Position numbers and translations under genes: made by a program. The notes under the pieces were generated by a model. It saw nothing but the letters and a program-made list of their open reading frames with translations. It was not told where the DNA came from and searched no databases. Shown here in pieces: positions 11,939 to 35,286 of a stretch of DNA of 64,000 nt. The stretch is from contig CAVYLP010000001.1 in assembly GCA_963769425.1 (NCBI GenBank), positions 320,001-384,000 of the forward strand, given 5' to 3'. The first letter of the stretch is position 1. Every line of letters begins with the position of its first letter. Origin of the DNA: Candidatus Bathyarchaeota archaeon (lineage in GTDB: Archaea; Thermoproteota; Bathyarchaeia; TCS64).

Positions 11939-12289
11939 ATGAAGATCAAACTGACAAGCGTATTTGTAGACAACCAAGGCAAGGCTCTAAAGTTTTATAC
12001 CGAGGTTTTGGGCTTCGTTAAGAAATCGGATAACACCGCAGGGAAATTCAGATGGTTAACAGTTGTTTCGCCTGAAGATCAAGACGGTACCCAGTTACAA
12101 CTCGCTCTCAACGATAATCCCGCAGCAAAATCCTACCAGGAATCTATTTTCAAGCAAGGTGTTCCCGCAGCTATGTTCGACGTTGATGACATTCAGAAAG
12201 AGTATCAGAGACTGAAGAGATTGGGAGTGAAGTTCACCATGGAGCCGACGAAAACATTACTCGCGCGCAAGCTGAAAGTGAAAAATTGA
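11939..12289 (+). CDS. VOC/glyoxalase family protein, probably C-terminally truncated
   Basis: MKIKLTSVFVD..KALKFYTEVLGF. Lacks the usual final DxxGNxxxL strand; the frame runs into a CGCGCGC tract after MEPTKT. Confidence 0.8.
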   Translation: MKIKLTSVFVDNQGKALKFYTEVLGFVKKSDNTAGKFRWLTVVSPEDQDGTQLQLALNDNPAAKSYQESIFKQGVPAAMFDVDDIQKEYQRLKRLGVKFTMEPTKTLLARKLKVKN

Positions 12290-12375
12290 TTTAGGTCTGA
12301 ATCTTGCGATCTAAAGTTTTGAAAACCTTTGCCGAACTATATATAAAGAAGAAATTTTAATTTCAATTTGATAAT

Positions 12376-12789
12376 ATGAGCGCAAGAGAAGGGACTGAAT
12401 TAAAAGAACCTGCGTCTGAGTTGTTCCGCAAGAGAGTCAAGGAACTGGGCGATTGGCGTGGCGAGACGCTTGAAAGAGTGCGCAGGCTCATCAAGGAGGC
12501 GGACCCGGAGATAGTAGAAGAGTGGAAGTGGGTGAAACCTACGTCGCCTGGAACTCCAGTCTGGTCCCACAACGGCGGCATCTGCACCGGCGAGACCTAC
12601 AAGAGTGTAGTCAAGCTCACTTTCTTCAAGGGTGCTTCGCTGGAGGATCCCGCTCACCTGTTCAACCAGCCTGGGACCGTCAGGCGCGCTATCGACATCC
12701 ATGAAGGCGACAAGATCGATGAAGCTGCGTTTAAGAAACTCATTCGCGAAGCCGTAGCTTTGAACCTCAAGAGCAAAGGGAAACGGTAG
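12376..12789 (+). CDS. DUF1801 (YdhG-like) protein
   Basis: LIKEADPEIVEEWKW..PVWSHNG..VKLTFFKGASLEDP. Confidence 0.85.
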   Translation: MSAREGTELKEPASELFRKRVKELGDWRGETLERVRRLIKEADPEIVEEWKWVKPTSPGTPVWSHNGGICTGETYKSVVKLTFFKGASLEDPAHLFNQPGTVRRAIDIHEGDKIDEAAFKKLIREAVALNLKSKGKR

Positions 12790-12991
12790 ACTTGGACCAT
12801 GAGGACATCCTGTCGTTCTCAGAGCAGCAGATGGATCACCAAGAGCCTATCAAAAATCAAGCCAGCAGCTAGTTTTGGGCATAGAAAAGTACAGGTTGAA
12901 TGCTAAACATGTGCTTGACTCACTCAACCTAGACCAGAAAAACAAAGACCTAACTGACCACTACCACAGAGAAGGACCGTAAGAACAACAA

Positions 12992-13420
12992 TTGAACCAC
13001 TCTCAATGCTCAAAGCCCGCCGTCACCAGCACCCACGTGAAGGCCTACAGTAAAAGAGCCATGGACAACCGAACCGGGAAAAGCGACCCGGATGCGAGGG
13101 TGAGCGTAGAAGAGGAGGCTTCATCCTCGGCTACCGCGTCCACACGGCCCACTGCGCCGACTCCGAGCTGCCCTTGGCATTCACGGTGGCTCCATGCAAC
13201 GAGAACGACAAGGTCTACTTCGAACCGCTGTTAGAGCGGGTTCACCGCCTCGGAGTCAAGTTCAGATCCGTTCTGGCGGATGCGCAGTATAGATCGGTGG
13301 TACGTGACGCGGCTGAGTGGCTCGAGGCTGAGCCGATCATCCCGGCTAAGAGGGACTCCCGGGTTGATGCGGTACTGTGTGTTGGCCGGGACTTCGTTGC
13401 AAGAGGTGCTAAGCAGCCAG
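12992..13420 (+). mobile_element. IS5/IS4-like DDE transposase fragment (pseudogene)
   Basis: STHVKAYS..SDPDAR, GFILGYRVH, LAFTVAPCNEND and VLADAQY across frameshifts. Truncated at a CAGACAGACAAACGCGCGCG junction. Confidence 0.8.
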
Positions 13421-13528
13421 ACAGACAAACGCGCGCGTATAAATTATTAATTAAGGAATATTTTACATTATTTAATTCTATACGAGAAAGGTATAAATGC
13501 TCAATATAATACCGCAAATGAGTTCAGA

Positions 13529-14749
13529 TTGGCGCAGATAGTCACAGCGGCTCAGAGGCGGAACTATTACTTCATCATTGGCTTAGTTGTGATGATGCAG
13601 ATCACCTCGTCGACCATCTACATGGTTCTACCACTCTTCTATGCGAGCGTAGGAGTATCGGTGGCGGAGAATGGCGTCTTAATATCGATAAGCACCTTCA
13701 TGGGGATACTGAGCGGCCTAACCGCAGGGGTTCTATCTAATAGGTACGGGAGGAAGAAGATTCTCACACTGAGCGCCATAATATACTCGGTATCCTATCT
13801 AATGCTCGAGTACATGGGCACAGATTTTGGTAGCCTGGCGCTCTCGAGGATCGTCGCCGGAATAGGATTCTACATGATGCCGGTCATGGTGACCACCATG
13901 GCGGCGGACATATTTCCGATGGGGATCCGCGGGAGGGCCATGAGTCTCTATCAGGCAACGAGCGGGGTAGGCTCGTTGATTGGGCCGCTGATCGTTCCAC
14001 TGCTAATATTTGGAACCGATTTCAGCCATTATTTCCTGTTCTCAGCCATCTCGATCATGATAAGCGGCGTCTTTATGGCCTTCATCATCAAGGAGACGCT
14101 GCCCTCGGAGCTCAAGTCCAGTGTAAACGAGTCTATCCGCAAGAAGCTGAACGTTCGGGGATTCATCACCTCTCTTAGGGGCCTCGGCGTGGTCGTTGGG
14201 ATATTCCTCGGCGCAGTCATCTTCTATAGGACAGCGTACACGATGATCGATCCGTTCCTGAGCCTCTACCTGACAGAGGTGCTCAAACTTAACCTCGACT
14301 CAGTGAGCGCTATATACGCTTCCAGAGCTATATGCTACATCGCGTTCTCCTTCGTTGGTGGCTATCTCATCGATAGGTTCAGCAAGAAGACTGTGCTTCT
14401 GATGGGCCTCGCCATGACCACGATAACCGTCATTAGCTACCCCTTCACCCTGACGTTTCCGCTGATGTTGGTCTTGAGGGCGTGGGACGCCGCTTCTACC
14501 GCCATCTTGATCACGGGGATCTACACGTCGCTGGCCGATTTACTTACGGTGGAGAAACGTGGCCTGGGTATGGGGATCTACTCGGCGACGGCGCAACAGA
14601 GTTCGACTGTTGGCTCCATATTCAGCGGTTTCCTGATTGGGGTTTATGGATTCAACTTTGTTTTCGTAACGGCTGGCATAGCATGCGCCTTATCTTTCCT
14701 GATCTTCTGGAGGTTTGTGCCGGGGGGGAAGAAAGTGGATAAATCGTGA
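13529..14749 (+). CDS. MFS transporter
   Basis: About 12 TM helices; motif A variants GVLSNRYGRK and GYLIDRFSKK. Confidence 0.9.
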   Translation: MAQIVTAAQRRNYYFIIGLVVMMQITSSTIYMVLPLFYASVGVSVAENGVLISISTFMGILSGLTAGVLSNRYGRKKILTLSAIIYSVSYLMLEYMGTDFGSLALSRIVAGIGFYMMPVMVTTMAADIFPMGIRGRAMSLYQATSGVGSLIGPLIVPLLIFGTDFSHYFLFSAISIMISGVFMAFIIKETLPSELKSSVNESIRKKLNVRGFITSLRGLGVVVGIFLGAVIFYRTAYTMIDPFLSLYLTEVLKLNLDSVSAIYASRAICYIAFSFVGGYLIDRFSKKTVLLMGLAMTTITVISYPFTLTFPLMLVLRAWDAASTAILITGIYTSLADLLTVEKRGLGMGIYSATAQQSSTVGSIFSGFLIGVYGFNFVFVTAGIACALSFLIFWRFVPGGKKVDKS

Positions 14750-15154
14750 AAATAGGATGACTTCGTGCATATCTTCAATCATCCCATAACCGAGTCCCGA
14801 ACGGTGTGGCATCGTCTATGTTGCGCGTAAATCACGTGGTGGCAACATCTCAGACGAGGTCATTCATAAGTTGTTCTCCGCGCGTGCAATGAGTATTATA
14901 CAGTGGAAAATGCGCACGCAAGCATGAGAAATCTCGGCAGCGGAAAGCAATAATTACCAACATATATATTTCTTAATAAACCTCTGAAATGATGATTTTC
15001 ATGGCTCCAAACCTTAAGAATAAAATGTTCCTAGATGGCGAGTAGGTTGACTGATGAGGCGCGCGCGGGCCATAGCCTTATCCCCCCAAACCCAAACCCC
15101 TTTTTTTTTGTGTTTTTCTTAAACCAGCGATTAGTTGATTATCAGCATGTGCAC

Positions 15155-15174
15155 GGTGGAAGTGAGGATAAGAC
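15155..15174. repeat. 20-bp direct repeat GGTGGAAGTGAGGATAAGAC, copy 1
   Basis: Exact match to 15982-16001. Confidence 0.9.
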
Positions 15175-15254
15175 ATCCGCCAGACAAATACTTTTACATT
15201 AGATGAGGCTAATGCCAAAGAAGCTTTGGAATATATTTCGAGTATTTTATGCTA

Positions 15255-15923
15255 TTAGGCTAATCCAAGTACTCTCCCAGTTAGCTCAGTCCAGTCCTTA
15301 TCGACGGCCTCCCGAATGAGAGACTTAAGACCCGAAAATACCTGAGGAGGCATCAGATTCATCCATCCCTTAGTTAGGATAACTTGGTCATCCTGCTTCA
15401 GCAGAGGGAAAAGCCACCTCACCAAGAGGGGAGTCTTTTCCTGAGGCACACTCCTCGCCATGACCCCAACAATGGACACTTGTTCATCCAACCCCGTATT
15501 CTCTCGGAGAGTCGGGTACAGATAGGTGTCCTCCTTGTAGAGGTGAATCCTAAGATGTGACCTCAAGACAGCCGTCGCCCTGGCAACCACAAGGGGATCA
15601 GTTGCAGCACTCATCACACCTAGCCCAGCGACCATATCATCCAGTTCACGATGATCAGTGACATATGTCTTAGCTAGGAGCGGCGCCACCTTATCGACCG
15701 CCGGGAAGACTGCCTCCTCCTCACCCTTTGCATGGTAATTCAAAATCTCTCCAGTGACCTTCATTCGGTTAAGAATAGGAGTAAAATCTCCGCGGGTCCT
15801 TACCGTTTTTAAGGTATCCTCATCTATCTCCAGCAAGTCCCTGCGAAATGCGTTGTGAAAGCAGCGTACTACGTCAATTGGTCCGAAGTCCGTCCATTTG
15901 TTCACATCTGTGCCCATGTTCAT
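15255..15923 (-). CDS. Hemerythrin/HHE domain protein
   Basis: HNAFRRDL, HAKGEEE, DHRELD, HLYKED. Confidence 0.85.
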   Translation of the reverse strand: MNMGTDVNKWTDFGPIDVVRCFHNAFRRDLLEIDEDTLKTVRTRGDFTPILNRMKVTGEILNYHAKGEEEAVFPAVDKVAPLLAKTYVTDHRELDDMVAGLGVMSAATDPLVVARATAVLRSHLRIHLYKEDTYLYPTLRENTGLDEQVSIVGVMARSVPQEKTPLLVRWLFPLLKQDDQVILTKGWMNLMPPQVFSGLKSLIREAVDKDWTELTGRVLGLA

Positions 15924-15981
15924 GTCGATTATCTTCTCTTAATCCCTTAAATTAAATCTGTGTGAATTAAAACTAGCATCA

Positions 15982-16022
15982 GGTGGAAGTGAGGATAAGA
16001 CTATGGTTATCACCCAAACCCC
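15982..16022. repeat. Dyad site containing copy 2 of the 20-bp repeat (GGTGGAAGTGAGGATAAGACTATGGTTATCACCCAAACCCC)
   Basis: Exact 20-mer match to 15155-15174, GATAA/TTATC dyad, and 13/14 inverted match to 15070-15083. Confidence 0.8.
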
Positions 16023-16172
16023 AGTTTTCTATCCTTCATACCTGTCTAACAATCTCCCTTCTACTCTCACATACTCTTACTCTCTCTCTGGGTCAGACAG
16101 ACAAACAGACAGGGAAACGAACAGGCAAACAAATAAGAAGTATTAAAAGAGTTAAAAAAATATTTTATTTCG

Positions 16173-17033
16173 ATGTCTGAGATTAAAGTCAATTATATTC
16201 GTTTATCTTTGTTCAGAAATATCTCTTTATTAATCGTCCTATTTGGGTGGAGCATATATAATATAATGGGTGGAATCTTTAATTCAATTTATTTTTATCA
16301 ATATTTTACACAAGGTTTTTTATACTATGAACTATTAGAGAGCCTAATTTCCTCCTTTTCAGGAATACTATTATTATTCCTACTCATTGATATTTTACGT
16401 TCGAAAGAAATTACTCAACGAAATAGACTTGAGATAGTAAGCTTGTTTTTACTTCAGATAATATATCAAATAGCAAGACCCGTCTCTATGTTATACTTTA
16501 ATTTATCATCTATAAGTTTTCAACCACTTGACATTTCTAATTATACTCTATCTATATCTATAGCTATATTTAGTATTATTTTATATATTTATATAATCAG
16601 GAATATTTCCTATGGGTTAAATTTAATTAATGAAAATATACTCATATTAATTTTCTTTATATTTACAAGTTTTTCAATATATCAATTGTTGTATTATATT
16701 AATTATTTTGAGGGTCACTTATTCTATTTTTTCCAAATTAGTTCATTTGAATTAATATATTTGGTGGCTACATTTTTTTCCCTTAAGTTGTATCAAAAAT
16801 TTAGAAAAAATGATCTATCAGACCTTGTTATGCCTATCTATCTCAGAATCGCCCTTTTTGAGTTCGGATTTATGGGTCTTGCAAGTGTATACTTTTTACT
16901 CATTAGTAATGGTCGCATTTTGTTATATGGAGGGGTGTTAATTGGTGAGATGCCCAATATCTGGAGTTTTGTATATTACATTGGTTTTATGGCATTATCT
17001 TTCTTACCCCTAAAGATTATCTTCGATAAATAA
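16173..17033 (+). CDS. Hypothetical polytopic membrane protein, very AT-rich
   Basis: 286-aa ORF with about 8 hydrophobic segments, rich in I/L/F/Y. Confidence 0.6.
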   Translation: MSEIKVNYIRLSLFRNISLLIVLFGWSIYNIMGGIFNSIYFYQYFTQGFLYYELLESLISSFSGILLLFLLIDILRSKEITQRNRLEIVSLFLLQIIYQIARPVSMLYFNLSSISFQPLDISNYTLSISIAIFSIILYIYIIRNISYGLNLINENILILIFFIFTSFSIYQLLYYINYFEGHLFYFFQISSFELIYLVATFFSLKLYQKFRKNDLSDLVMPIYLRIALFEFGFMGLASVYFLLISNGRILLYGGVLIGEMPNIWSFVYYIGFMALSFLPLKIIFDK

Positions 17034-17109
17034 AACTCCAAAGAGTTAATCAATCAAACTGCGCAATGTCCGGGCTGGGTAGAACGGTATTATGCGTGCG
17101 CACATTATT

Positions 17110-17223
17110 GTTAAGATTAATGACTCTAGGATCCCAATTTTTAGTCTCACCCCTAAGATACTTAGCGAATAATAGAGACTCTTCATTTATCAGCGTCTCT
17201 TGGGTCTGGTGCTCCCCGTTCCT
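17110..17223 (-). pseudogene. cas1: Probable C-terminal fragment of an archaeal solo (non-CRISPR) Cas1
   Basis: RNGEHQTQETLINEESLLFAKYLRGETKNWDPRV resembles the recalled Bathyarchaeia-type Cas1 tail QT.ETLINEEALLLAKYLR.E...W.PR. Recognised from memory, not searched. Confidence 0.6.
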
Positions 17224-17325
17224 GTTATCTAGACAAAGCGCAGGAATGACGCAACAGGTTAACCAAAAATTAACGTCAGAGTGCTTAAATGAGGTTGGAA
17301 GTATTCGACGCGCACGCAAACGCAC

Positions 17326-17952
17326 TCAGACATTTCCCCACTTATTGTAGTGTAGTTTATCCTTGAGCGTAACGGTCTTCTGCCTAACAGAATAGTCCAT
17401 GGGGTAGCCAATCGGAATCGCCGCTGCCACCTCATAACCATCAGGCACGCCCAGAACCTTCTTGAGAACAACCGTCTCACGAGGCACACTGGTAACCCCA
17501 TATAACCCCTCCGCAGCCATCGCCAGCATGATGTTCTCTATGCACATCCAGATAGAAGCCAAATCGTTCAGGTCATACAGAATCTCGCATTCCTTCAGAG
17601 GCTTCCTCAACCTATAGCAGACGACAAGCAGCTCCGGCGAGGTCACCAGCATCTTCACCTGAACCGGCAGCGCCTTACGATACATCTCCCTCTGCAGCTC
17701 ATCCGACCAATTGTTTAACGCCTTTTCGAGCTCCATCTCGTTCGTGATGTTCTTCCCCTTCGAGACCAGCTCCGCGACCTTTACCCTCTGCTCAGGGTCT
17801 TTAACGAGGATGAACTCCCACTGCCGGAGATGGTTATTTGACGGTGCTTTTAGCCCCGCCTCTAGAACTCTACGGAGCTTCTCTTCTTCTACGGATCTTG
17901 ACTGAAACTCCCTCACGCTTCTTCGATTGTTGACCGCTTCGTAAAACTCCAA
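17326..17952 (-). CDS. Nitroreductase family protein
   Basis: RRSVREF, APSNNHLRQWEF, IENIMLA..AEGL, IPIGYP. Confidence 0.9.
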   Translation of the reverse strand: MEFYEAVNNRRSVREFQSRSVEEEKLRRVLEAGLKAPSNNHLRQWEFILVKDPEQRVKVAELVSKGKNITNEMELEKALNNWSDELQREMYRKALPVQVKMLVTSPELLVVCYRLRKPLKECEILYDLNDLASIWMCIENIMLAMAAEGLYGVTSVPRETVVLKKVLGVPDGYEVAAAIPIGYPMDYSVRQKTVTLKDKLHYNKWGNV

Positions 17953-18192
17953 CTAAGATGCCACCTTGCTATATTCATAAGATAATGTTTGTATTAAGTT
18001 GACGAAAACGGATCCTTTTTAGTTTTGAACCTGATTTGTGGATTTGGTGTTCAAAGTGTTCTTGATGAAGATGTGGGGTGAATGAGGCATCTAATAGGAT
18101 GATCTTCTAAACAACCAAGCTCGCGATTCAGCGGATCGAAATATAAGAATAGATTTAATTCATACCCATACAATGTATAACATAGGTCAAGT

Positions 18193-18435
18193 ATGACTGA
18201 GGTTCAGGTAACCAGCAAGGGGCAGATAACCATCCCCTCGGAACTCAGACGCAAATACAACATAGAGGAAGGCGGTAGGGTCCAAGTCGTCGAGGAAGAC
18301 GGGAAGATCGTAGTCAAAAAAGCGATCAGCTTCTACGACCTCGCCGGATCAGCTGTGGGAGAAGCCACAGTCGAGGAGCTAAAAGAGACGCTGGACGAGA
18401 TGAGAAAAGACGATGAAGAAAACCAGCGTCTATGA
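18193..18435 (+). CDS. vapB: AbrB/MazE-family antitoxin (VapB)
   Basis: VTSKGQITIPSELRRKYNIEEG; overlaps the PIN gene. Confidence 0.9.
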   Translation: MTEVQVTSKGQITIPSELRRKYNIEEGGRVQVVEEDGKIVVKKAISFYDLAGSAVGEATVEELKETLDEMRKDDEENQRL

Positions 18436-18811
18436 CACGAGATACTTCGTCGAATACTTCTACTCCGGAGACGAGGAGGCTGTAAGAGCCCTAAAAAAAG
18501 ACGCGCGAGAAACAGGTGAGAAAATCGTCTCCACGGTGACCATCCATGAATTCTATAGAATAAACCTAGGCAAAGCAGGTAGAGAAGCAGCACAACTCAG
18601 ATGTAACGCCATAAGAAACGAGTTCAAGATAATTGACCTTGACTATGAGCAAGCTCTGCTCAGCGCCCAGATAAGAAACGAGGCTCCGATCCCCTTCGCA
18701 GACAGCGTTATCGCCGCCGCGGCACTATCGAGAGGCTGCCCAGTCGTTTCAGACGACAATCACTTCAAAAAGGTACAGAGATTACAAACGCGCTGGCCCG
18801 TTCCAAGGTAA
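18413..18811 (+). CDS. vapC: PIN-domain toxin (VapC)
   Basis: YDT, TIHEF, FADSVIAA and VSDDNHF acidic quartet. Confidence 0.9.
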   Translation: MKKTSVYDTRYFVEYFYSGDEEAVRALKKDARETGEKIVSTVTIHEFYRINLGKAGREAAQLRCNAIRNEFKIIDLDYEQALLSAQIRNEAPIPFADSVIAAAALSRGCPVVSDDNHFKKVQRLQTRWPVPR

Positions 18812-18924
18812 TTGTATACGGTCGAATGGGCGCGCGCGTCTAGCGTATACGTAAAAAAAATATTTGTTTGCGGATAAGACAGAAGAATGGCTTTTGAGTG
18901 AGTTCGACTCTTTAGACCTTTAAC

Positions 18925-19857
18925 TTGAGAAATACATGGAAGTATTCCGGTCCCATTTTTGATGCGCATACACACATTGGAACAATCACTGAAATATCTA
19001 GGATGATTGCCATCGAAGATGATTTTGGGATTTCAAAACAGATTGGAATTGTACATAATGAAGAAGGATTTCAGGCTGCAAAAGAGAAGTATCCAAACAG
19101 GTTCATCTTCGCAAAATATCTCTCCCTGAAAGATATAGCCAAGTACAACGTGGAACCCGTTCTTAATGAGATAGCTAAACTCAAAGATCAGGGCTATTCC
19201 CTCGCCAAGTCATGGTTTGGCCCCCGCTGGCGTGACTGGGTTGATGTTCCGAAGGATTTTCGGATTAATCACCCCAAACTAGAGCCCATTTTTCAGGCCC
19301 TAGAGGACAACGGGATACCACTCATCATTCACATGGGTGATCCCGACACCTATTACGCGACTCAGTATAAGGACTCGGAGAAATATGGTACTAAGGATGA
19401 GCACCTCAAACAGATGGAGGATGTCTTATCCAGTCACCCTAAACTAAAGTTTCAGATCCCTCACTTTGGTGCACAGCCTGAGATACATAGGTTACCCAAT
19501 CTGACTAGGTGGATGGACAAGTTTCCCAATGTCGTAGTCGATACAGCTTCGTCAAGATGGATGGCCCGAGAGTTGAGCAAGGACTCGAGGAAGGCTCGGG
19601 AATTCATGTTAAGGTACTCGGATAGGGTCCTGTTTGGGACCGACATCGAATCCGATCAGGATGACCGTGATTACTTCTCTGGCCGATACGTTGCGCAGAG
19701 AATTCTGTGGGAGACAAATGAACGAGATACTCCACTGCCTTTCCCTGACGCTGACACTAAGGATACTGGTGGAACGGTGATCAATGGTCTTGATCTACCT
19801 CTTTCAAGTCTTGAAAAGTTGTATTGGGAGAATGCAAGGCGATTATATATGGTGTAG
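18925..19857 (+). CDS. Amidohydrolase_2 family metal-dependent hydrolase
   Basis: DAHTH, IIHMGD, PHFG, LFGTD, LYWENARRL. Confidence 0.85.
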   Translation: MRNTWKYSGPIFDAHTHIGTITEISRMIAIEDDFGISKQIGIVHNEEGFQAAKEKYPNRFIFAKYLSLKDIAKYNVEPVLNEIAKLKDQGYSLAKSWFGPRWRDWVDVPKDFRINHPKLEPIFQALEDNGIPLIIHMGDPDTYYATQYKDSEKYGTKDEHLKQMEDVLSSHPKLKFQIPHFGAQPEIHRLPNLTRWMDKFPNVVVDTASSRWMARELSKDSRKAREFMLRYSDRVLFGTDIESDQDDRDYFSGRYVAQRILWETNERDTPLPFPDADTKDTGGTVINGLDLPLSSLEKLYWENARRLYMV

Positions 19858-19970
19858 AAACGATGCCTTCGAACTAGCATAAGTTACTATATTCTTTATT
19901 CGCTAGCGATATATTGCCTAATTCTTTTCCACGCGCGCTAATTATCACAAATTTAGGAATCAAATTCTGC

Positions 19971-20008
19971 CAGTCTAAACCAAGATGTGGAGCTCTTCCT
20001 CTGCGCCA
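19971..20008. repeat. 38-bp dispersed repeat, copy 2
   Basis: CAGTCTAAACCAAGATGTGGAGCTCTTCCTCTGCGCCA. Confidence 0.85.
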
Positions 20009-20257
20009 TTCAAAATAAATGAATGGGGCAGTTTAAAGGCATATTTTTAATATTGAGGAGATATTAATTGAGCTTGAATTCTGCTTTCAAATTTGATTTT
20101 CTATGAGCGTTCGTATTGGTGCGTTATCAACCTAATCTCCTCTTCAGGATTCCCGCAACGTTCAAGTCGAAGTCCCAAAGGTAATAGATGTGAAACTATC
20201 GGAACCCATTTACTGTATATCTTAAGGATCCAACTTAATCCTAGTCATCGACGCCGA

Positions 20258-22621: not shown

Positions 22622-22721
22622 TTACTGAATATTTTTCAGAACGAGATACTTATTTCGATACGTTGCTATGGACGAAATGACGATTTCATACGGGGACTTC
22701 TTTAATTACCGTTGCTAGTTG

Positions 22722-27112: not shown

Positions 27113-27277
27113 TAGAACAATATCATTTCCGTAAAGAGAGGCTAGAATAGAATTCTAACACTTGTTTAGATCTTCATCAAGCATTGATTACCACCAGGGA
27201 ATAGACCGATCCCACGAGACCTCCGTCAACAGCAGCGACATCAATGCCTTACCTACAGCGACGCCGAGAAAAGAATT

Positions 27278-27440
27278 GGCTTACTGAATTTTTTTCCGTT
27301 ATGACTAGCTACTTGCGCAAGGGGGACATGAAAACAACTCCTTTTCATTAAATCGTAGTTGGATTAGAAGGCTTACGAATTTTTTTTTATGTATCATATG
27401 CCACGTTGACAAGGAAGACTTGAAAAAAGCTCCTTTTTCA
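27278..27440. repeat. Imperfect tandem duplication (about 70-bp unit, 92-bp spacing)
   Basis: GGCTTAC(T)GAATTTTTTT...CAAGG..GAC.TGAAAA.A.CTCCTTTT(T)CA at 27278 and 27370. Confidence 0.65.
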
Positions 27441-27468
27441 CGACTAAAATTCTAAGAATTCCAAAAAT

Positions 27469-27633
27469 TTACTCGTCTTCGGGGCTTGACATGATTCTCA
27501 GTTTGAGCTCCTCACGCGGGAAGGCGCCGACGGGAATATTCATACCGGACTTCAGGCTAACGACGAAGTCCCCGCCCAGTATCTTGGAAGGGTCCTTCTC
27601 CTGCATCCGCTCTATCCTCTCGTAGACACTCAA
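27469..27633 (-). CDS. Small hypothetical protein (54 aa), not in the ORF track
   Basis: TTG start after a GGTGG RBS-like motif; MSVYERIERMQEKDPSKILGGDFVVSLKSGMNIPVGAFPREELKLRIMSSPEDE. Confidence 0.5.
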   Translation of the reverse strand: MSVYERIERMQEKDPSKILGGDFVVSLKSGMNIPVGAFPREELKLRIMSSPEDE

Positions 27634-27670
27634 CCATGCCACCCGCCGTTTTATCTATCACCCGCGGAAA

Positions 27671-27919
27671 CTACGCCTTAACCTGGTTAAACGCCCCGCA
27701 TTTTGGGCACTTGTAGACGGCGTCGGGTACCTGCATCCTTAGAAGAGATTTCAGCAGGACGTGATTACACTGACCACACACGTAGTTTAGGGCGCCCTTC
27801 CCTGCGATGAATGGCTCCATCTTTCTCTCCTTGGGTGAGTTATCCCTACTCTGGAACGCGCTCCCACCCATCGGTAATGTTGGAAGAACAACCATCTTGA
27901 ATGTGAATATGTGGTCCAT
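27671..27919 (-). CDS. Small Zn-ribbon protein (paralog A)
   Basis: CGQC...YKCPKCGAFN; shares ERKMEPF with 28783-29043. Confidence 0.8.
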   Translation of the reverse strand: MDHIFTFKMVVLPTLPMGGSAFQSRDNSPKERKMEPFIAGKGALNYVCGQCNHVLLKSLLRMQVPDAVYKCPKCGAFNQVKA

Positions 27920-28314
27920 GTAATCTCCAAATAATAGTGTGTCTTCGTTTCTTATAAAGAAACGTATTAAAAACACATCTGTTTAGACCCATTTTTTAAT
28001 TAGTTTGTTGAAAATGAGACGAGGTGGGAGAATTCTTTGTCGTCATACGCTAAATCGAACGTGTGTCTCAAAGCGGCGAGCTTCGAAACCGTCAGGCGAA
28101 GACTAAATCTTCGCGTGCTTCCTCTTCTTCTTGTCCTTTTTCGGTAAAACCATCTTTCTCAAAGCGACGACCTCCATAAGATCTGCCCCCAGGACAAGCC
28201 TAGAGACGAATGCGTACGACGAATAGAGAATCCCATAAAATCCCAGCCTATATTATCTGGCTCTCACTTTTAAAGCTGCGTTAAAATCGCCGTAAATAAA
28301 TGCGATATGTGAGA

Positions 28315-28632
28315 TTAAGCGTTGAAAAGCGCCCTCTTGAGGCTCGACTTCTCGGCGTTTAGGCTATCGATCCTATCAGAGATGCTCCTCATCTTTCCAC
28401 GATACGCGTTCAGGAACACTTTCACGTCGGCGCTGTTCTTTCTCAGTTCAACAAACGTACCAGTGTCCTCGGGGGAACTCACTACTATCTTCCCGCCGCT
28501 ATTATGCGCGTTTTCGAGGACCCGGATCTCACGCTTAACGCGCAGATACTCCTCGCCGTGTTCTATGTCCTTGATCTTGGACTCAATCTCAAGCACCCTG
28601 AGTAATGTGGTGTTACGCTGGGAGAACGACAT
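28315..28632 (-). CDS. Hypothetical coiled-coil protein
   Basis: 105 aa with heptad-like charged helices. Confidence 0.6.
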   Translation of the reverse strand: MSFSQRNTTLLRVLEIESKIKDIEHGEEYLRVKREIRVLENAHNSGGKIVVSSPEDTGTFVELRKNSADVKVFLNAYRGKMRSISDRIDSLNAEKSSLKRALFNA

Positions 28633-28782
28633 AGCACTACTATGCGCCCGGCTCTTATAGACCTTTCAACAAATGTAATCAAATAGCCTCTTTTTGCTGT
28701 TTTTTTTAAATTTCAATATGAAAGAACACTCTTTTTTGATATGGTTAATATAACCCGCGAGGACCTATGTTGAGGATAGAGC

Positions 28783-29043
28783 ATGAACAACCAAAACACG
28801 TTCAAGATGAGGATCTTACCGTCGAAGCCTATTGAGGGCACGATATTCAGCAAGGATAACTCCACGCAGGAGAGGAAGATGGAACCGTTCGTAATCGGTG
28901 AGGGTGTAATGGATTACCAGTGCGGGAGCTGCGGCCACTTCATGCTCAGGTCTCTTCGCCCAGCGCAGGTGACCCAAGCGATCTACAAGTGCCCCAAGTG
29001 CGGGAACTACAACCAGGTCGAGCCTTACGTGAAAAAGCACTGA
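28783..29043 (+). CDS. Small Zn-ribbon protein (paralog B)
   Basis: CGSC...YKCPKCGNYN. Confidence 0.8.
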   Translation: MNNQNTFKMRILPSKPIEGTIFSKDNSTQERKMEPFVIGEGVMDYQCGSCGHFMLRSLRPAQVTQAIYKCPKCGNYNQVEPYVKKH

Positions 29044-29184
29044 CTCATCTTTACGATATTCTAAGAAGCATCTATTAAGACAAGTTCTAGGGGTATATTT
29101 GAGAGAAGGCTACGATAAAAATCAGTCACATAGCCAGTACATTTTAACCAGAAAGATTAGCCTGCCAGAAAAAGCGTTGATAGA

Positions 29185-29550
29185 CTAATTTCGTCCTTCT
29201 CGGAGGTCGCGGAGTATCTGGTCGTATTGCTCCTTTGTAACTTCGCCTCGAGCGTACCTCTGTCTGAGGATCTCCTCCGACTCGGTTGAGATACCCATTC
29301 CATAGCCCCGATGACTCATGGGGGCCCGGAAAGTGAACCTGAGCACCATCATCACCAAGAAGACCACTAGGATGAACCCTAGTATCCCGGCTCCGATCAT
29401 CCAGACGCCTCCCCACCTCATCATGGGCATGCCGTAGTAGCCCCCAGTGTAAAACGCTGGTCGGGTTAAGGCCGAGAAGAACCATATCGAGCCCACGATC
29501 AGGAACAACACTCCGAACCCGATCATAGTCCACCTCATAGGATGCATTCG
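29185..29550 (-). CDS. SHOCT-domain membrane protein
   Basis: Two TM helices, G/M-rich linker, C-terminal EILRQRYARGEVTKEQY. Start uncertain. Confidence 0.85.
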   Translation of the reverse strand, partial: RMHPMRWTMIGFGVLFLIVGSIWFFSALTRPAFYTGGYYGMPMMRWGGVWMIGAGILGFILVVFLVMMVLRFTFRAPMSHRGYGMGISTESEEILRQRYARGEVTKEQYDQILRDLREGRN

Positions 29551-30006
29551 ATACATTACTATCAAAGGGCAACCGAAACACGCCATCCTATAAACCGATG
29601 TTTAAAACAGGGGCAGAAAACGACCCCTTCTGGATGTATCTGGTTAAACTGATACAGGTTTGTGGGCCAGCCATACACTTTGTATATCCCTGACCCTCAT
29701 CTGAAACCTAGTAGTCGATGAACTTTTTCGACAACACCCTGTAGTGAGTACTTGGACTGCGGCGCCCCTGAAGATCTGAAGGACTCAGGCGATTAACCTG
29801 GGAGATTATCATATTAATCCTTAGGAAGCCGCTTAAGCCCGCTCGACCTGTTAACGCTTATCCTTTTTTTATTTTCTCTTCATAATAACTTTATTAGCGC
29901 CGCGGTACCCCTCTAGGCGGCTGAGGGACGCCACGCGGGCCCCCGTTGGATGATTTCTGACAGAACGCCCAAGGGACAATGCCCCCGCCGAATGGATGCG
30001 ATAAAA

Positions 30007-30279
30007 ATGGAGTACAAGGGCATAGTCATGAACTACGGCGTCGGCGCCAAGATGCAGTACCCGCATAGGATGATAATCATGGTTCCAGGGGCCACGCCCA
30101 GCGAGGCGAAGGGGCTGGTCGGATCGACGGTAGCCTGGCCATATGACGAACCGAAGATCTTCGGCAGGATCACGCGGTTCCACGGCGTCCGCAAGGGCTA
30201 TCTGCTCGCAACCTTCAGAAGGGGGCTACCCGGGGACTCCATCGGGAAGGCCGTGAAGATAACCAAACCCGAAGCCTAG
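30007..30279 (+). CDS. rpl35ae: 50S ribosomal protein eL33 (L35Ae)
   Basis: KGIVMNY..G...QYP, LVG..V.W, GRITRFHG..G...A.FRRGLPG..IG..V pattern. Confidence 0.85.
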   Translation: MEYKGIVMNYGVGAKMQYPHRMIIMVPGATPSEAKGLVGSTVAWPYDEPKIFGRITRFHGVRKGYLLATFRRGLPGDSIGKAVKITKPEA

Positions 30280-30715
30280 ATTATTTCTCACTGAAACCGA
30301 GAAAACGGTTAGCCAAACATTCTAAAATAAAGTCGAAGAGTCACTTTGGGGGTTCAGATTTTATTTCATGTTTGGGCTTTAATTTGAGATCGTATCTTAC
30401 CAAATCGGATAAACTGTCAAACTCCTGTCCGCAAACATGGCATTTGAAGGTGCGTTTCTTTTTCTCTGTTTCCATCTCTTACCACAATTTGAAAGATGTT
30501 GTTAATTATTAATAAACAGGTTAGAAATGGGAGTGGAGTCTGCATTGTTGTTATTAGTTTGAGGTTTCGTCTTTTCTCTCCTTTTTTTGAAAACCTCAAA
30601 CTGTTGATTTTTCGGTCCAATGAATACTATAAACTTGAAACATTAAATATTATCCCTCTGAAAGAGCGGGTATTATTGCCTAAATTTATTAGTTTAAAAT
30701 AGCCCTAAAATTTCG

Positions 30716-30961
30716 TTATCCTACTAATTCCCCAATTAATACAATCGATTCAAGTTTTTCTTCTCCATGTGGTGCCATGGATAATCCCTCACTGATATCT
30801 TGTCCCGCTTTATGCATGCTGAAATGGTCGCCGTTCCCCCATAATCGACTTCCAGTGACATCATAGACTTTCCCATTGTTAGCAATGTACGCGGGCTTAC
30901 CATTCTTGCCATCGTACTGTTTTAACTGTTCAAGTGTAAATTTTTTTAATTCGCTCATCAA
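30716..30961 (-). CDS. Cytochrome b5-like heme/steroid-binding protein
   Basis: FTLEQLKQYDGKNGKPAYIA..GKVYDVT...H.AG.D...APHG. Confidence 0.9.
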   Translation of the reverse strand: MMSELKKFTLEQLKQYDGKNGKPAYIANNGKVYDVTGSRLWGNGDHFSMHKAGQDISEGLSMAPHGEEKLESIVLIGELVG

Positions 30962-31085
30962 ACTCCCTTGACATTGAATAAAAGTAATGTAAATAAAAGT
31001 ACTGGATCTGCTAATTCCATTTTCAAAGATGCCTTTATACTTTATTGCCTTATATCAAACAATGTATCAAATTATTTGAGGAAAA

Positions 31086-32054
31086 TTGGCATCAAGATCT
31101 CTTTTAAATCAACTATTGTTACCGATTAAGACCGATATTAATTGGGTCGAGAAAAAAATCAAAAAACTCACAAACAATAATGGCATAATCCCAAATGATG
31201 ATTTAACCAGGTATATTACTGGAGGAAAACGCCTGAGATCAGCCATTGTTCTCCTTATAGGTAAGATGCTTAACGCAGAGATGGAACCTTTCTATAGCCT
31301 TGCAGCCTCAATAGAATTGCTACACAGCGCAACACTTGCTCACGATGACCTCATAGATGGAGGTAACATGAGGAGAAACCAAGCAATAAGTAACTCACTA
31401 TCACTCCCAATCTCCCTCCTCGCTGGTGACTATCTACTAGCCCGGTCAACATCCGAGCTAGCAAGCCTAAATGATCCCACTCTATTGAAGATCCATTCAA
31501 ATACACTCCTGATGACGTGTGAAGGAGAATATCAGCAATGGCGCTTATCAGGGAAGGCTCTTAGTAAACAGACCTATTACGACATCATTCAGAAAAAAAC
31601 AGCTTCACTTTTCGCTGGATCAGCAGAGATGGCGGCTGTATTATCGGGGACCGACTCCAAGACACGTATTAAACTAAGGGACTATGGATTAGAACTCGGG
31701 ACGCTTTACCAGATTGTAGATGACATCCTAGACTTAATCGGAGATGAGGAAGTTCTAGGTAAAACCCTGAGACTGGACCTCAGGAGAGGCACCTACACTT
31801 TACCAATGATCATCTACCAAGAACATCAACATGGTGAACAGATTCGACCCTCTGGCGAGTTAACCGACTTCCAGATAGCCACAATCATTAAGGCCTTAAA
31901 GAAGTCCGGGGCGCTAGAAGCCTCCTTGAGAGAGGTGGAACATTACGCGGTATCCTGCAAGAAGTCGTTAAGTGGACTACCAGAAGGCATACCTCATAAC
32001 GCGCTCGCGTCGCTAACAGACTACTTGATGGATCAGGTAAAGTCTACTCAATAA
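31086..32054 (+). CDS. Trans-polyprenyl diphosphate synthase (long chain)
   Basis: GGKRLR, FARM HDDLID..RR, KKTA, SARM DDILD. Ala at position -5 of the FARM. Confidence 0.9.
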   Translation: MASRSLLNQLLLPIKTDINWVEKKIKKLTNNNGIIPNDDLTRYITGGKRLRSAIVLLIGKMLNAEMEPFYSLAASIELLHSATLAHDDLIDGGNMRRNQAISNSLSLPISLLAGDYLLARSTSELASLNDPTLLKIHSNTLLMTCEGEYQQWRLSGKALSKQTYYDIIQKKTASLFAGSAEMAAVLSGTDSKTRIKLRDYGLELGTLYQIVDDILDLIGDEEVLGKTLRLDLRRGTYTLPMIIYQEHQHGEQIRPSGELTDFQIATIIKALKKSGALEASLREVEHYAVSCKKSLSGLPEGIPHNALASLTDYLMDQVKSTQ

Positions 32055-32058
32055 CAAT

Positions 32059-32751
32059 TCAAGTTTTAGTAGCCCAAACCAGACCCGCGGTTTCGAAGCT
32101 AAGCCGCCTACTATTAACTCCCTTAAAGCCGAACTCCATGAGGGCCTCCTCAAACTCGTCTATCCAACGAGTCTTCCTAATGAGGTCACTCAAACCCTTG
32201 TTGAAAACGGTGTGCCACTCCGGATATAGAATCGACCCGACTTGGTTCATCCCCCAAACGTAGATTGACCAGAAGTTAAGATACAGTGGATTGATGGGTT
32301 GGGTGAAGTCATGAGCGATGAAGACTCCACCCCTACGAAGATGCGATACAACATTATTGAGCAGGAGCTCGGGGTCGACGTATTTTGCTAGGTACGATGA
32401 GACGATGACATCGAACTCTCCCTGAAGACTAACGGTCTCTGCATTACCTAAGATCGGTTGAGCGTTGATCCAGGGGTTTTCTTTAAGGCGCTCACGGTAG
32501 ACCGCGAGGTAATCCTCGGTGATGTCTACGCCGACGATCTCCGCGGTGGGGTACTTTTTCGCAAGGTACTCGGTGACTATACCTGTGCCGCAGCCGAGGT
32601 CAAGTATCCTCCCCGATTGAGGCACCAGCTTCAGCATCTCCTCTTTCCAGTAGGAATCTAGCCCAAGCGTGAATGTCTGAACTACTTTATCGTAGCTATT
32701 ACCCGTCTCCGAGAAGAAGGAGCTGACCAGCCTCTCCCTGTTAACGCCCAC
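32059..32751 (-). CDS. Class I SAM methyltransferase, UbiE/MenG-like
   Basis: FF.....YD......TLG.D..WK, ILDLGCGTG, GNAE, HDFTQP. Confidence 0.8.
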   Translation of the reverse strand: MGVNRERLVSSFFSETGNSYDKVVQTFTLGLDSYWKEEMLKLVPQSGRILDLGCGTGIVTEYLAKKYPTAEIVGVDITEDYLAVYRERLKENPWINAQPILGNAETVSLQGEFDVIVSSYLAKYVDPELLLNNVVSHLRRGGVFIAHDFTQPINPLYLNFWSIYVWGMNQVGSILYPEWHTVFNKGLSDLIRKTRWIDEFEEALMEFGFKGVNSRRLSFETAGLVWATKT

Positions 32752-32804
32752 CAGCGCGCACCCCTATTGACAAACGTCACATGATTTCCGGGGTTTATAC
32801 ATAT

Positions 32805-33770
32805 TCATAGGAGACTCCTGACCAGTCTCAAGGAATCCCTGAGACCTATCCTAATACCCATCCTCCGAGAGTTCCTAAGTATGACCAGTGCATCAATGAG
32901 GCCAGGTGATTTTCTAGCCGCAATCTTATCGACCACCCTGCGCTCCCTCTCCATCCAGTTAAACTCTTTCAAAATCGCCCTAGTATAGCCTTCTGGATCC
33001 TCCCAGTTACGCATGAGCAACTTCGCACAAGTCATCCCGGATATCACACCATCACCAGCCAAGGGGCCAACACACCCGATAGCCTCACCCACCCCCCAAA
33101 CATCGGGAATCCCCTTCACAAAGAAGGGCTTTGAGCCAATGGGCCCAGTGAGGCGCATCTGGCCGCTGCATCCACAGATTATCTCGGAGAAGTTGTCACC
33201 AATCCATTCCAGATGACTAAATAGCTCCTCAGGATCACCGTACAGACTCCCACATCCAACATGACATTTCCCGCCTCCAAGGGGAAAGCACCAAGCGTAA
33301 CCTCCGCCCCCGGGCTTAATTTTCAACTCTGGTGCTATCTTTGATGCTAGTCTCAACTGTTTACAATTAATGATGACATCGTATTTGATCGGGGGGAGGA
33401 AAGCTCTAGCTACCCCTGTGGCATCAATCACCCTATCATAATTCTTCGGGTTAAGAGGTGTGTAATGAACCTCAACATTTTCTGAAAGATCATTCACGAA
33501 ACGAGGCTTGTCGAAGGTCATTATCTCCGCTGGTACTCTCACATCATCGAATATCACTGAGTTGAACCTCTCCAGAATGTATTCATCGGGATCAAGGCCA
33601 GCCTCATTCACCAGATCAGAAAACTCCCTCGAGGTCCCCCATGCACATGGGTGAAGACCACACAGTGTTTGCCTCTTTATCTCATAGACGTCTACGTGAT
33701 AATCTTCCTTACTGAGTAGTCTTAGGAGGTAGGAGCCGGCTATGCCCATCCCTGCAATCGCGATTCTCAT
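32805..33770 (-). CDS. Geranylgeranyl-reductase-family FAD oxidoreductase
   Basis: IAGMGIAG, DATG, GYAWCFP, VGEAIGCVGPLAGDG. Confidence 0.8.
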   Translation of the reverse strand: MRIAIAGMGIAGSYLLRLLSKEDYHVDVYEIKRQTLCGLHPCAWGTSREFSDLVNEAGLDPDEYILERFNSVIFDDVRVPAEIMTFDKPRFVNDLSENVEVHYTPLNPKNYDRVIDATGVARAFLPPIKYDVIINCKQLRLASKIAPELKIKPGGGGYAWCFPLGGGKCHVGCGSLYGDPEELFSHLEWIGDNFSEIICGCSGQMRLTGPIGSKPFFVKGIPDVWGVGEAIGCVGPLAGDGVISGMTCAKLLMRNWEDPEGYTRAILKEFNWMERERRVVDKIAARKSPGLIDALVILRNSRRMGIRIGLRDSLRLVRSLL

Positions 33771-33773
33771 TTT

Positions 33774-34472
33774 TTATCCTCCAATCAGAAAACCGGATAG
33801 TGCCAGGATCGCGAGGAGATAACTCGTTAAACAGAGGAGCTGCAATGCTCGCTCCGGCTTTTGTGCAAAGATCTTTAGTGTAGGATCCTCTTGGGATTGT
33901 TTCCTGATTAGTCGAGAATGTCGGGATAGGGTGATCTCGATCGCTGAGATTAATGTGGCAAGAAACGCCCAGGGGATGAAGGAGTATCCGATAGTCAGGG
34001 TGTTAACATAAGATCCCACCAATACCGGAATAAATCCGAAGGAAATCGAGAACCAAAAGTCGTTATGGAAGAAGCCATTCAGGAACCTCCCGTTGGGGTA
34101 GGCATAGGTGAAGAATGATTGCAATGGAATCATCCAGAGTAGGTGCCAAGCCCCGAGCATAATCATCCAATAAACTCCCAGGAGGATCCCTCCAACTAAT
34201 GCAGAGACGCCTAAAATGGTGAGCGTCCTCGGGGTCAGCTGTTTAACATAGATGCTCCCTCTGCCTGGAATTTGATCGAATGAGTGAGCAGCTAAACCAA
34301 GACCAAGAAAATAGGCAATGGTTATGCCGACTACCGCATCCCACCTAGTAACACCACCTAATCCAAACCCAATTGCCAGGAAGCTCAGGCTCATCAGGGT
34401 GTAGGGTAAGTGTAGAATGGTCCAGAGCTCCGCCCACTTGGAGCCAGTCGCTTGGTACCAGGTTTGACCCAT
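33774..34472 (-). CDS. UbiA-like membrane prenyltransferase-family protein
   Basis: LHLPYT, AAHSFDQ..GR, YP....GFFHNDFWF; about 7 TM helices; operon context. Confidence 0.55.
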   Translation of the reverse strand: MGQTWYQATGSKWAELWTILHLPYTLMSLSFLAIGFGLGGVTRWDAVVGITIAYFLGLGLAAHSFDQIPGRGSIYVKQLTPRTLTILGVSALVGGILLGVYWMIMLGAWHLLWMIPLQSFFTYAYPNGRFLNGFFHNDFWFSISFGFIPVLVGSYVNTLTIGYSFIPWAFLATLISAIEITLSRHSRLIRKQSQEDPTLKIFAQKPERALQLLCLTSYLLAILALSGFLIGG

Positions 34473-34750
34473 TCTCTTAAAACTAGATACAATGAATTAA
34501 ATAAACTACCATGAAAATTGCAAGGGATGTAATTAAAAAGAGATTTTAGATATTCAACGAGGTAAAGTTTCTCTTGAGTCGCGCAGACTTGGTCTTGTAG
34601 ATGCTCCCTTCATAGCAGTTGGGGATATAGATGGAGATTTCGGCGTCTCTAATTTGAAAATTTGATAGTATTTTCAATTAACATCCATGCTTTGGGCTAA
34701 ATACATAAACAATAAAATCAGCGCTCTGTTTCAAAACATGGTAAAGTCTC

Positions 34751-34951
34751 TTGGCTATAGATCCTATCTGTGGAATGACGGTAGACGAAAAGACAGCGAA
34801 GTGGACGACAACCTACAAGGATAAGACGTACTACTTCTGTGGACCAATATGTAAAGAGGAATTTGACTCAAACCCAGAAAAATATGTTCTCCAGGGGCTA
34901 AAAAACCTACAAAAACAGAATAAAACCATGTCAGCTAACGATTTTACGTAA
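34751..34951 (+). CDS. YHS domain protein
   Basis: DPICGMTV...YYFC...CKEEF..NPEKY. Confidence 0.9.
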   Translation: MAIDPICGMTVDEKTAKWTTTYKDKTYYFCGPICKEEFDSNPEKYVLQGLKNLQKQNKTMSANDFT

Positions 34952-34983
34952 CATATATTATCTAAGGTTCCCAAACGAAAAAC

Positions 34984-35286
34984 ATGACCGCAGATTTATC
35001 ACTCAAGATGGGTATGCGCAGACTCTGGTCAGACCACGTGTTTTGGACCAGAATGTACATCGTAGCAGCGGCCGCCGGGACCCCCGACGCAGAAGCAGCT
35101 GCAGGTAGACTCCTCAGAAACCAGGAGGACATCGGTAACGCAATCGTCCCATATTATGGGAAAGCAGCTGGGACAGGGCTCACAGACCTTCTGAAGCAGC
35201 ACATTATGATTGCTGTTGACAGACCCAAAGCCATAGCGGCCGATATGCTAGGTTATTATCTGCTGGTGCAACATTCTAAATATTAG
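34984..35286 (+). pseudogene. Truncated four-helix (hemerythrin/ferritin-like) protein
   Basis: MRRLWSDHVFWTR..RLLRNQEDIGNA..YYG..LT.LLKQHI is the N-terminal half of a recalled family. Similarity stops at GAC|AGAC (about 35220). Confidence 0.55.

Follow-up and report, generated by a model that had tools for sequence, protein, structure and literature searches.

Truncated genes at block edges and CG-tipped transposons in an accessory region of a Bathyarchaeota archaeon

Why do four genes in one accessory region of an archaeal genome end abruptly, and does a common motif mark the places where they break? We analyzed a window of 64,000 nt from a Candidatus Bathyarchaeota archaeon (assembly GCA_963769425.1, contig CAVYLP010000001.1), corresponding to G000:C1:320001-384000, where G000 is the source genome and G002, G009, G012, G016 and others are same-genus relatives. 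From the sequence of this window, an earlier note had proposed that a VOC/glyoxalase-family gene, an insertion sequence (IS) transposase gene, a cas1 tail and a gene starting at 34984 are cut at junction motifs, CGCGCG and/or CAGAC, and that these motifs are signs of recombination rather than of transcription. On balance, and with moderate confidence, we favor the reading that the four stumps are pseudogene remnants lying at the edges of reshuffled gene blocks, and that CGCGCG forms the outer tip of the inverted repeats carried by resident transposable elements and is not a free-standing signal. The source genome is archaeal (score of 1463 bits with the archaeal small-subunit (SSU) model) and comprises 2.55 Mb in 6 contigs at ~54% GC, with a completeness of 91% and a contamination of 4.9%.

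The VOC/glyoxalase-family remnant (11939..12256, plus strand) retains codons 1-106 of the normal 128, as judged from Pfam and from protein and DNA alignments. Past the break its frame stays open for 10 unrelated codons before a stop at 12287-12289, which yields a product of 116 aa that matches positions 2-102 of the 121 positions of Pfam Glyoxalase. Almost all of the best 120 homologs are 128 aa long, and they cover 91% of the query. The similarity is rich in identities through ...KFTMEPTKT (residue 106, nt 12256); past this residue the homologs read PGSTIAVFDDTCGNLIQLTQLG, and the window reads LLARKLKVKN and a stop. The DNA alignment with intact metagenomic genes, of which the closest loci in the metagenome scan are 88% and 83% identical, stops at ...GACGAAAAC. 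Hence the C-terminal loss that had been placed at a CGCGCGC (12262-12268) is real, with both the homolog and the DNA alignments breaking after 12256, 6 nt from that tract. The tract lies in a junction segment (12257..12323) between the VOC stump and a DUF1801 gene block (12324..12876, plus strand; gene at 12376-12789, matched by Pfam DUF1801). This block is common to other same-genus genomes as a unit, being 94% identical to G002:C33:1387-1940 and having the same left edge in G012:C70.

The second break lies in a decayed, apparently IS5/IS1182-like element at 12888..13414 (plus strand), a member of the family that we designate IS-B, which was delimited by Pfam, NCBIfam and same-genus alignments. 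The frame at 13174-13509 matches only positions 51-116 of the 200 of DDE_Tnp_1 (E=9.8e-6); it also matches internal parts of the IS1182, IS5 and ISH3 models, with the IS1182 and IS5 NCBIfam matches below cut-offs. Same-genus copies align with 12888-13018 and with 13018-13414 and carry ~225 nt extra between the two, which corresponds to an internal deletion of ~225 nt at ~13018 in the window copy that shifts the frame. The left ~55 nt, including the inverted repeat, are also absent, and in a contig from sequencing run X3 the sequence next to 12888 leads into the missing left repeat of IS-B. All same-genus matches end at 13413-13414 and the 3' part is gone from 13415, in agreement with the earlier placement of the transposase end at ~13413. 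A CG tract of at least 6 nt lies 16 nt from this break, and CAGAC/GTCTG lies 4 nt away. The DNA that follows (13415..13437, plus strand) is a putative IS-B right tip, reading AGCCAGACAGACAAAC and then GCGCGCG(C), after which comes unrelated AT-rich DNA upstream of an MFS gene. The simplest reading of CGCGCGCG after the break is that an internal deletion spared the right tip of this element. Of its terminal inverted repeats, the window copy thus keeps a putative tip of 7-8 nt on the right side (13430-13437), the left repeat being missing.

The cas1 remnant (17122..17224, minus strand) consists of the last ~34 conserved codons, as found by BLASTP and DNA alignment. Residues 35-68 of the frame at 17050-17325 (minus strand) are 82% identical to residues 288-321 of a Cas1 protein of 325 aa from G012:C80, which matches Pfam Cas_Cas1 at 1.8e-41. 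The tail had been described as extending from ~17230 to 17091 with a junction sequence at either end; its 5' break is real and lies at 17224, but its 3' side is the natural gene end and no truncation. The motif at the 5' break is TAGACA...AGCGCAGG, neither CAGAC nor CGCGCG. Remnants of the cas1 3' end of ~100 nt recur at several loci and in several genomes, namely at G000 C4:206428-206527 and in G009, G011 and G014; the breaks of the two G000 remnants fall within ~16 nt of each other, and the matches in G009, G011 and G014 end at the break seen in the window. In G016:C13, a full IS-B copy lies ~150-200 nt upstream of a cas1 gene.

The remnant of a conserved gene at 34984..35220 (plus strand) retains codons 1-79 of ~168 according to homolog alignments, and its frame runs past the break through 21 unrelated codons to 35286. 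Its homologs are mostly 168-170 aa long, and the alignment ends at D79 (nt 35220), exactly where the loss of similarity had been reported. One protein of 156 aa is 100% identical to the product over residues 24-79 and then reads LVAAAKAGD...; no Pfam or NCBIfam family matched the product. The nitroreductase gene (17326..17952, minus strand), whose stop inside TCAGACA had been offered as further motif evidence, is intact and matches positions 2-167 of the 167 of Pfam Nitroreductase, and the placement of its stop carries no meaning; it belongs to a block common with G002:C33 from 17320 that is 95% identical to G002:C33:2054-2747. All four stumps fit the description of a pseudogene or gene remnant: they are far shorter than the full-length homologs and their similarity ends abruptly within a conserved domain. 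The retained portions are 106 of 128 aa for the VOC gene, 66 of 200 profile positions for the IS, 34 of 325 aa for cas1 and 79 of ~168 aa for the 34984 gene. In no case did homologs show the gene to be full length, and 4 of 4 truncations lie at or within a few nt of where the earlier note had put them.

The motifs fared differently from the truncations. A CG tract lies within 20 nt of 2 of the 4 breaks, those of the VOC gene (6 nt) and the IS (16 nt); a random window position lies this close to a tract with P=0.015, which gives a nominal P=0.0014. No tract of at least 6 nt comes closer than 1278 nt to the cas1 break or 795 nt to the 34984 break, so the claim that the truncations end at junction motifs holds for two breaks and fails for the other two. 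CAGAC/GTCTG sits on the 34984 break and, as noted above, near the IS break, and is 39 and 20 nt from the other two. The window contains 34 CAGACA sites compared to 26.3 ± 4.7 expected (9 of 100 shuffles reach 34), and the Markov-1 observed/expected ratio of CAGACA in genome-wide intergenic DNA is 0.89. Moreover, CAGAC occurs within 20 nt of 2 of 20 CG tracts compared to 1.57 expected (P=0.47). The supposed presence of CAGAC at junctions and beside tracts is therefore at chance level, neither enriched nor linked to tracts, and we infer that it is a coincidence, a 5-mer picked after the breaks had been seen.

In contrast to CAGAC, CGCGCGC exceeds expectation in the window, with 19 overlapping matches compared to 3.6 ± 2.2 expected, at 10 loci; none of 100 shuffles reaches 19. 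Genome-wide, GCGCGC and CGCGCG are 2.1-fold and 2.7-fold denser in intergenic than in coding DNA, and their Markov-1 observed/expected ratios are 3.9 and 3.0 in intergenic and 0.64 and 0.37 in coding DNA, whereas for the other hexamer palindromes made of G and C only, intergenic density is roughly half the coding density; these figures are approximate, because the coding mask was a crude call of open reading frames (ORFs) of at least 90 aa, taken greedily by length, that covers 85% of the genome. The tracts are 6-12 nt long and are clustered in certain regions. Their density is 0.62/kb in convergent, 0.46/kb in tandem and 0.36/kb in divergent spacers; being densest in convergent and sparsest in divergent spacers, they are not promoter elements, and a promoter reading is ruled out. 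Thus, the view that recombination products and not transcription signals are seen here holds insofar as the stumps are rearrangement products and the tracts are not linked to promoters, but the four breaks have no junction motif in common. No extended motif or position-specific conservation was found within 25 nt of the tracts, and only 31 of 362 intergenic tract flanks fall in any repeat cluster. Intergenic tracts at or within 30 nt of transposable-element DNA number 16 of 181, compared to 4.3 ± 2.0 for random intergenic positions (maximum of 11 in 500 draws).

What connects the tracts with transposable elements is the sequence of the elements' ends. Four full IS-B copies of 1.21 kb each were delimited in G016 and G002. 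The left end reads CGCGCGC-TAGGCTGTTTAGAAATTAAATA (CCCGCGC in one of the four copies), and the right end reads ...TAATTTCTAAACAACTAT-GCGCGCG in two copies, with GCGCGCGCG in one and GCGCGCA in one. Read further inward, the right ends of the four copies are ...TTTCTAAACAAC/GTAT/AGCGCGCG, or GCGCGCA in one. The ends of family B can thus be written CGCGCGC-TAGGCTGTTTAGAAATTA, and the IS fragment of the window belongs to this family. Its transposase (321 aa, ORF of locus L045) matches DDE_Tnp_1 positions 5-197 of 200 together with DUF772. A second family, IS-A, is represented by an element of 1274 nt in G000 (C3:52070-53343) that also encodes DDE_Tnp_1 and DUF772 and has ends reading GCGCGC-TGCCTTGTCCC. 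The transposases of both families fall below the NCBIfam cut-offs for every named IS family, and they form a distant branch of IS5/IS1182-like transposases.

The source genome also carries a non-coding element of ~510 nt with inverted repeats of ~45 nt that start GCGCGC-TGCCTTGTCCCTAAATTGAT (the GCGCGCTGCCTTGTCCC repeat). The first ~25 nt of this repeat are also found in the transposase-encoding IS-A, and the element qualifies as a miniature inverted-repeat transposable element (MITE), a derivative of family A with that family's tip. Five complete elements of this type, 506-1133 nt long, were delimited, three of them ~510 nt, and G000 has 14 copies of at least 270 nt, query included (examples are C6:853725-854234, C3:349312-349826 and C6:89664-90169). 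The other 17 same-genus genomes gave only matches of ~105 nt or less to its ends. No ORF was found in the element, and no Rfam family matched it at the two loci scanned, where there were only two tRNAs nearby; there is no MITE copy in the window. With up to 3 mismatches allowed, a search with the family-A tip motif gave 33 matches; with up to 2 it gave 16, from which the terminal-inverted-repeat (TIR) profile of the family, TIR-A, was built after one of the 16 (C6_345849) had been left out as apparently spurious. Tip lengths are uniform within each family, mostly 6 nt in A, where a few are mutated (GCGCGT/ACGCGC), and mostly 7 nt in B, which fits the tip being part of the element's repeat.

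In the window, the TIR-B profile found a solo IS-B inverted-repeat remnant, TTCTAAACAACCAAGCTCGCG, at 18105..18125 (minus strand; nhmmer, E=0.0021), upstream of a MazE/PIN pair. This was its only match in the window with E<1 (position 3566 gives E=9.1), and the best TIR-A match in the window had E=0.96. In G002, a solo family-A repeat lies exactly where the match to the window's DUF1801 block stops, and in metagenome contig L051 a family-A repeat begins 4 nt past the stop codon of an intact VOC gene. To our knowledge, no described IS family has an alternating CG run at the start of its repeat. The portions of the literature at hand contained nothing on CG-tipped IS or on CG tracts at junctions in these archaea; two IS5/IS1182-like families and an expanded CG-tipped MITE in an uncultured archaeal genus are undescribed.

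We next describe where the stumps lie relative to conserved neighborhoods. The 36-kb contig G002:C33 is collinear with 61 kb of G000 (C1:326718-387987) in 18 blocks separated by 17 junctions. The inter-block gaps measure 103 nt to 6.6 kb for the window side and 2 nt to 5.9 kb for G002. Window-specific gaps J1 and J2 contain the VOC stump and the IS fragment, and J2 ends on the right with the cas1 stump; the DUF1801 and nitroreductase blocks are 113 nt apart in G002 compared to 4.4 kb in the window. The 34984 stump lies at the right end of a 5-kb window block (gap J7, 30291..35261) that is missing from G002:C33, where there is instead an extra 16-nt ACGCACGCGCGAAGAC in otherwise alignable DNA. 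Elsewhere, 9 genomes share an amidohydrolase block that begins at nearly the same point (GGAATGGCTTTTGAG; BLAST starts within ~30 nt) and is preceded by unrelated DNA. Taken together, these results show that the region is a mosaic of gene-sized blocks reshuffled among same-genus genomes. At gap J14, a window-specific segment of 455 nt (57203-57657) sits exactly where G002:C33 has CCGCGCG plus 5 nt. Among the 34 window-side block edges, 4 of which lie just past the window's end, none is within 10 nt of a tract of at least 6 nt compared to 0.61 under the null, and 2 are within 60 nt compared to 2.6. For the G002:C33 edges the figure within 10 nt is 4 of 34 compared to 0.49 (P=0.002), a result overstated by a null that used all positions.

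These observations may be joined as follows. The region would be a hyperplastic accessory region in which gene-sized blocks come and go and are reshuffled among the genomes of a single genus. Insertion of transposons, along with deletions that were perhaps IS-mediated or illegitimate, would have produced the four stumps at the block edges. In the decayed IS copy, an internal deletion of ~385 nt (IS positions ~810 to ~1195) would have spared the right tip, which would be the tract at 13430. The first 10 nt of the junction segment after the VOC stump, CGCGCGCAAG, are the same as the left tip of one IS-B copy (L046), and the tract there may be another transposon tip, that of a lost element whose insertion, or a deletion adjacent to it, would have removed the 3' end of the VOC gene. 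Deletions without involvement of CG tracts would account for the stumps of cas1 and of the 34984 gene. On this account, the locus looks like a case of ordinary transposon wear and not like a new recombination system.

Several results weigh against this account, beginning with the remoteness of any tract from the cas1 and 34984 breaks and from the window-side block edges. At 12262, the TIR-B profile gives only E=7.3, so that the tract is not recognizable as part of a repeat; the 12257-12323 segment has no match among 40 related genomes, and the exact 20-mer at 12265-12284 has 4 matches in a collection of genome contigs, all in unrelated bacterial metagenome-assembled genomes, as expected by chance. 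The 15 nt upstream of GCGCGCG(C) at 13430 align poorly by eye with the IS-B right end, and because only the tip of 7-8 nt matches that end clearly, the right tip remains a putative one. The four IS-B copies have no direct repeat outside their CG tips, and for neither the MITE nor IS-B was a pair of filled and empty sites found, the left and right flanks of a copy never occurring together in another genome; tip, target-site duplication and footprint are therefore not separable. Most intergenic tracts (165 of 181, ~91%) are away from recognizable IS or MITE DNA, and their flanks share nothing, which means that transposon tips do not, as matters stand, explain the genome-wide excess. Finally, both junctions (12256-12324 and 13414-13546) rest on a single assembly. 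Seven public sequencing runs were listed, each with 0.05 of the sampled words (maximum 5%) and none of them an RNA run, and the contigs from four runs are pieces of relatives that cover the VOC gene (to 12256), DUF1801 and parts of the IS and end at block edges, with none bridging either junction.

An alternative that we consider possible, if unlikely, is that the CG tracts pre-exist as fragile or preferred sites, either Z-DNA-prone palindromes or transposase targets, at which breaks start. The 3-4-fold over-representation of mostly solitary tracts in intergenic DNA agrees with this, as do the CCGCGCG in G002 at J14, the extra 16-nt sequence in G002 at J7 and the tract-adjacent edges of G002:C33, and the lack of a duplication outside the tract in the IS copies means that the tract itself could be the duplicated target. 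However, the window-side edges show no such proximity, the G002 figure is inflated by its null, and a tip length that is uniform per IS family is unlike what cuts through variable tracts would leave. Z-DNA-prone (CG)n tracts are deletion hot spots, and alternating CG runs do adjoin deletion endpoints at 2 of the 4 breaks here, but stable Z-DNA requires longer runs than the 6-12 nt of these tracts, which in addition lack window-side edge enrichment. Still less probable is that the adjacency reflects mere coincidence and an after-the-fact choice of motifs, with stumps produced by unrelated deletions. Both motifs were indeed picked after viewing the breaks, and we estimate that four windows of ±6 nt would have ~2 5-mers in common anyway; CAGAC does not exceed chance, and two breaks as well as the window-side edges have no tract nearby. 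Nevertheless, the CG motif covers 1.5% of the positions in the window and yet is found within 20 nt of 2 of 4 breaks, and one of these two lies in an IS whose family ends in that very motif.

We think it very unlikely that a dedicated, integron-like cassette exchange uses CGCGCG or a recurrent ~30-nt intergenic motif, TATCAGGTGGAAGTGAGGATAAGACTATTGA, as its recombination site. As with integron cassettes, there are sharp-edged homology blocks, often of a single gene, that are reordered and reused in different neighborhoods of related genomes; most of the 9 genomes with the amidohydrolase block have CG-type tracts 10-60 nt upstream of it, in DNA that is otherwise unrelated, and the 14 copies of the 30-nt motif are co-oriented within clusters and flank single genes. 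Unlike integrons, which have attC sites and IntI, the region has no integrase or other recombinase, IntI-type tyrosine recombinases included, among the 63 ORFs scanned in the window (80 aa or longer) or the 27 ORFs at three clusters of the 30-nt motif. It also has no attC-like conserved cores in the 25-nt flanks of the tracts and no platform-anchored array, gene orientation is mixed, the distance from tract to edge varies, and the 30-nt motif has no consensus fold, so that a structured conserved site is lacking. Least probable of all, to the point of being close to dismissed, is that chimeric assembly produced the junctions, with contigs of related strains joined at repeats in the making of a metagenome-assembled genome. 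The fragmentation, completeness and contamination of G000 given above, a GC content per kb that ranges from 26% to 61% across the window and the absence of an independent bridging contig leave room for such errors. Yet 61 kb of G000 are collinear with the contig of an independent genome and the junction segments are unique sequence, not repeats that mislead an assembler, which makes a chimera unlikely; nor would a chimera be expected to yield an internal deletion of 225 nt or read-through tails of 10-21 codons.

The closest known counterparts of the CG-tipped repeats and block-edge remnants are IS and the deletions that they mediate next to themselves. The elements resemble IS5/IS1182-type IS and their MITE derivatives in having DDE_Tnp_1 with DUF772, terminal inverted repeats of ~28-45 nt, many copies, decayed ones and solo ends among them, ~510-nt non-coding derivatives and copies at synteny breaks; they differ from those families in transposases that score below every NCBIfam cut-off and in repeats that begin with an alternating CG run. 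At the scale of the region, Sulfolobus islandicus chromosomes are described as having hyperplastic strain-specific regions (PMC3718332). The present region appears similar in being a long stretch that contains most strain-specific genes, IS and gene remnants beside a syntenic core, and it differs in lineage and in blocks that are often single genes.

Other recurrent intergenic elements occur in the same neighborhood. The 30-nt motif is present in the window at 15155-15174 and 15982-16001, two perfect 20-nt copies that flank a hemerythrin gene, and elsewhere in G000 on C1 (3.4, 7.2, 11.2, 94.6 and 314.6 kb), C4 (188-192 and 411 kb) and C6 (70-72 and 905 kb). It adjoins genes of stress or detoxification type (OsmC, SnoaL, DinB, ferritin, nitroreductase and VOC) and has many copies in same-genus genomes, often close to contig ends. 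Five copies have a second module, TAGATGAGGCTWATRCCAAAG...TTTGG, downstream in four and upstream in one. The motif has no Rfam match, and no integrase lies nearby at the three motif clusters scanned. A second inter-block element, CAGTCTAAACCNTAGTGTGAAGCTNTTCCTCTGCGCC, occurs at 11727-11862 and 19971-20008 and brackets the 8-kb stretch from 11.7 to 20.0 kb; it recurs between the blocks of G002:C33 (1-23, 1231-1264, 2999-3049 and 4179-4303). We rejected a tRNA or attachment (att) site as the identity of the 38-nt repeat at 11734 and 19971, as the 64-kb window contains no tRNA and no Rfam family. C/A-rich runs of low complexity occur at the borders of blocks at 15067-15099 (CCCCCCAAACCCAAACCCC then T9) and 16085-16131 (CAGACAGACAAACAGACAGGGAAACGAACAGGCAAACAAA); at C6:905 kb and C3:53 kb the former is found again, following copies of the 30-nt motif. 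A scan of the sequence located a solitary intergenic CG tract, GCGCGCGCG, at 15059..15067 and further ones at 18830-18838 and 19932-19938, of which the 19932 tract is kept in G002 and G009. Pfam annotation of the 63 window ORFs showed accessory, detoxification-type and metabolic genes, the MazE/PIN pair and a methylase. An ABC1-kinase gene occupies two overlapping frames, one at 62376-62837 that matches profile positions 2-55 and one at 62800-63993 that matches positions 54-243; a frameshift is the probable cause, and an intact paralog lies at 57661-59340.

One further conjecture, which we hold to be quite improbable, is that the solitary GCGCGC tracts are scars or landing sites of the lineage-specific CG-tipped transposases and, together with the 30-nt motif, drive an integrase-free exchange of cassettes. 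If this were true, transposition itself would seed the short palindromic hot spots behind the shuffling of single-gene blocks across the genus. The present results serve mainly as a correction: a motif found where a gene breaks may simply be the tip of an inverted repeat of a transposon, and a sequence as short as the 5-mer CAGAC does not amount to evidence. To this they add a description of two IS families, an expanded MITE and a map of single-gene block reshuffling between genomes of one archaeal genus, in which the excess of solitary GCGCGC tracts and the conserved 30-nt motif offer modest leads on the genome plasticity of this group.

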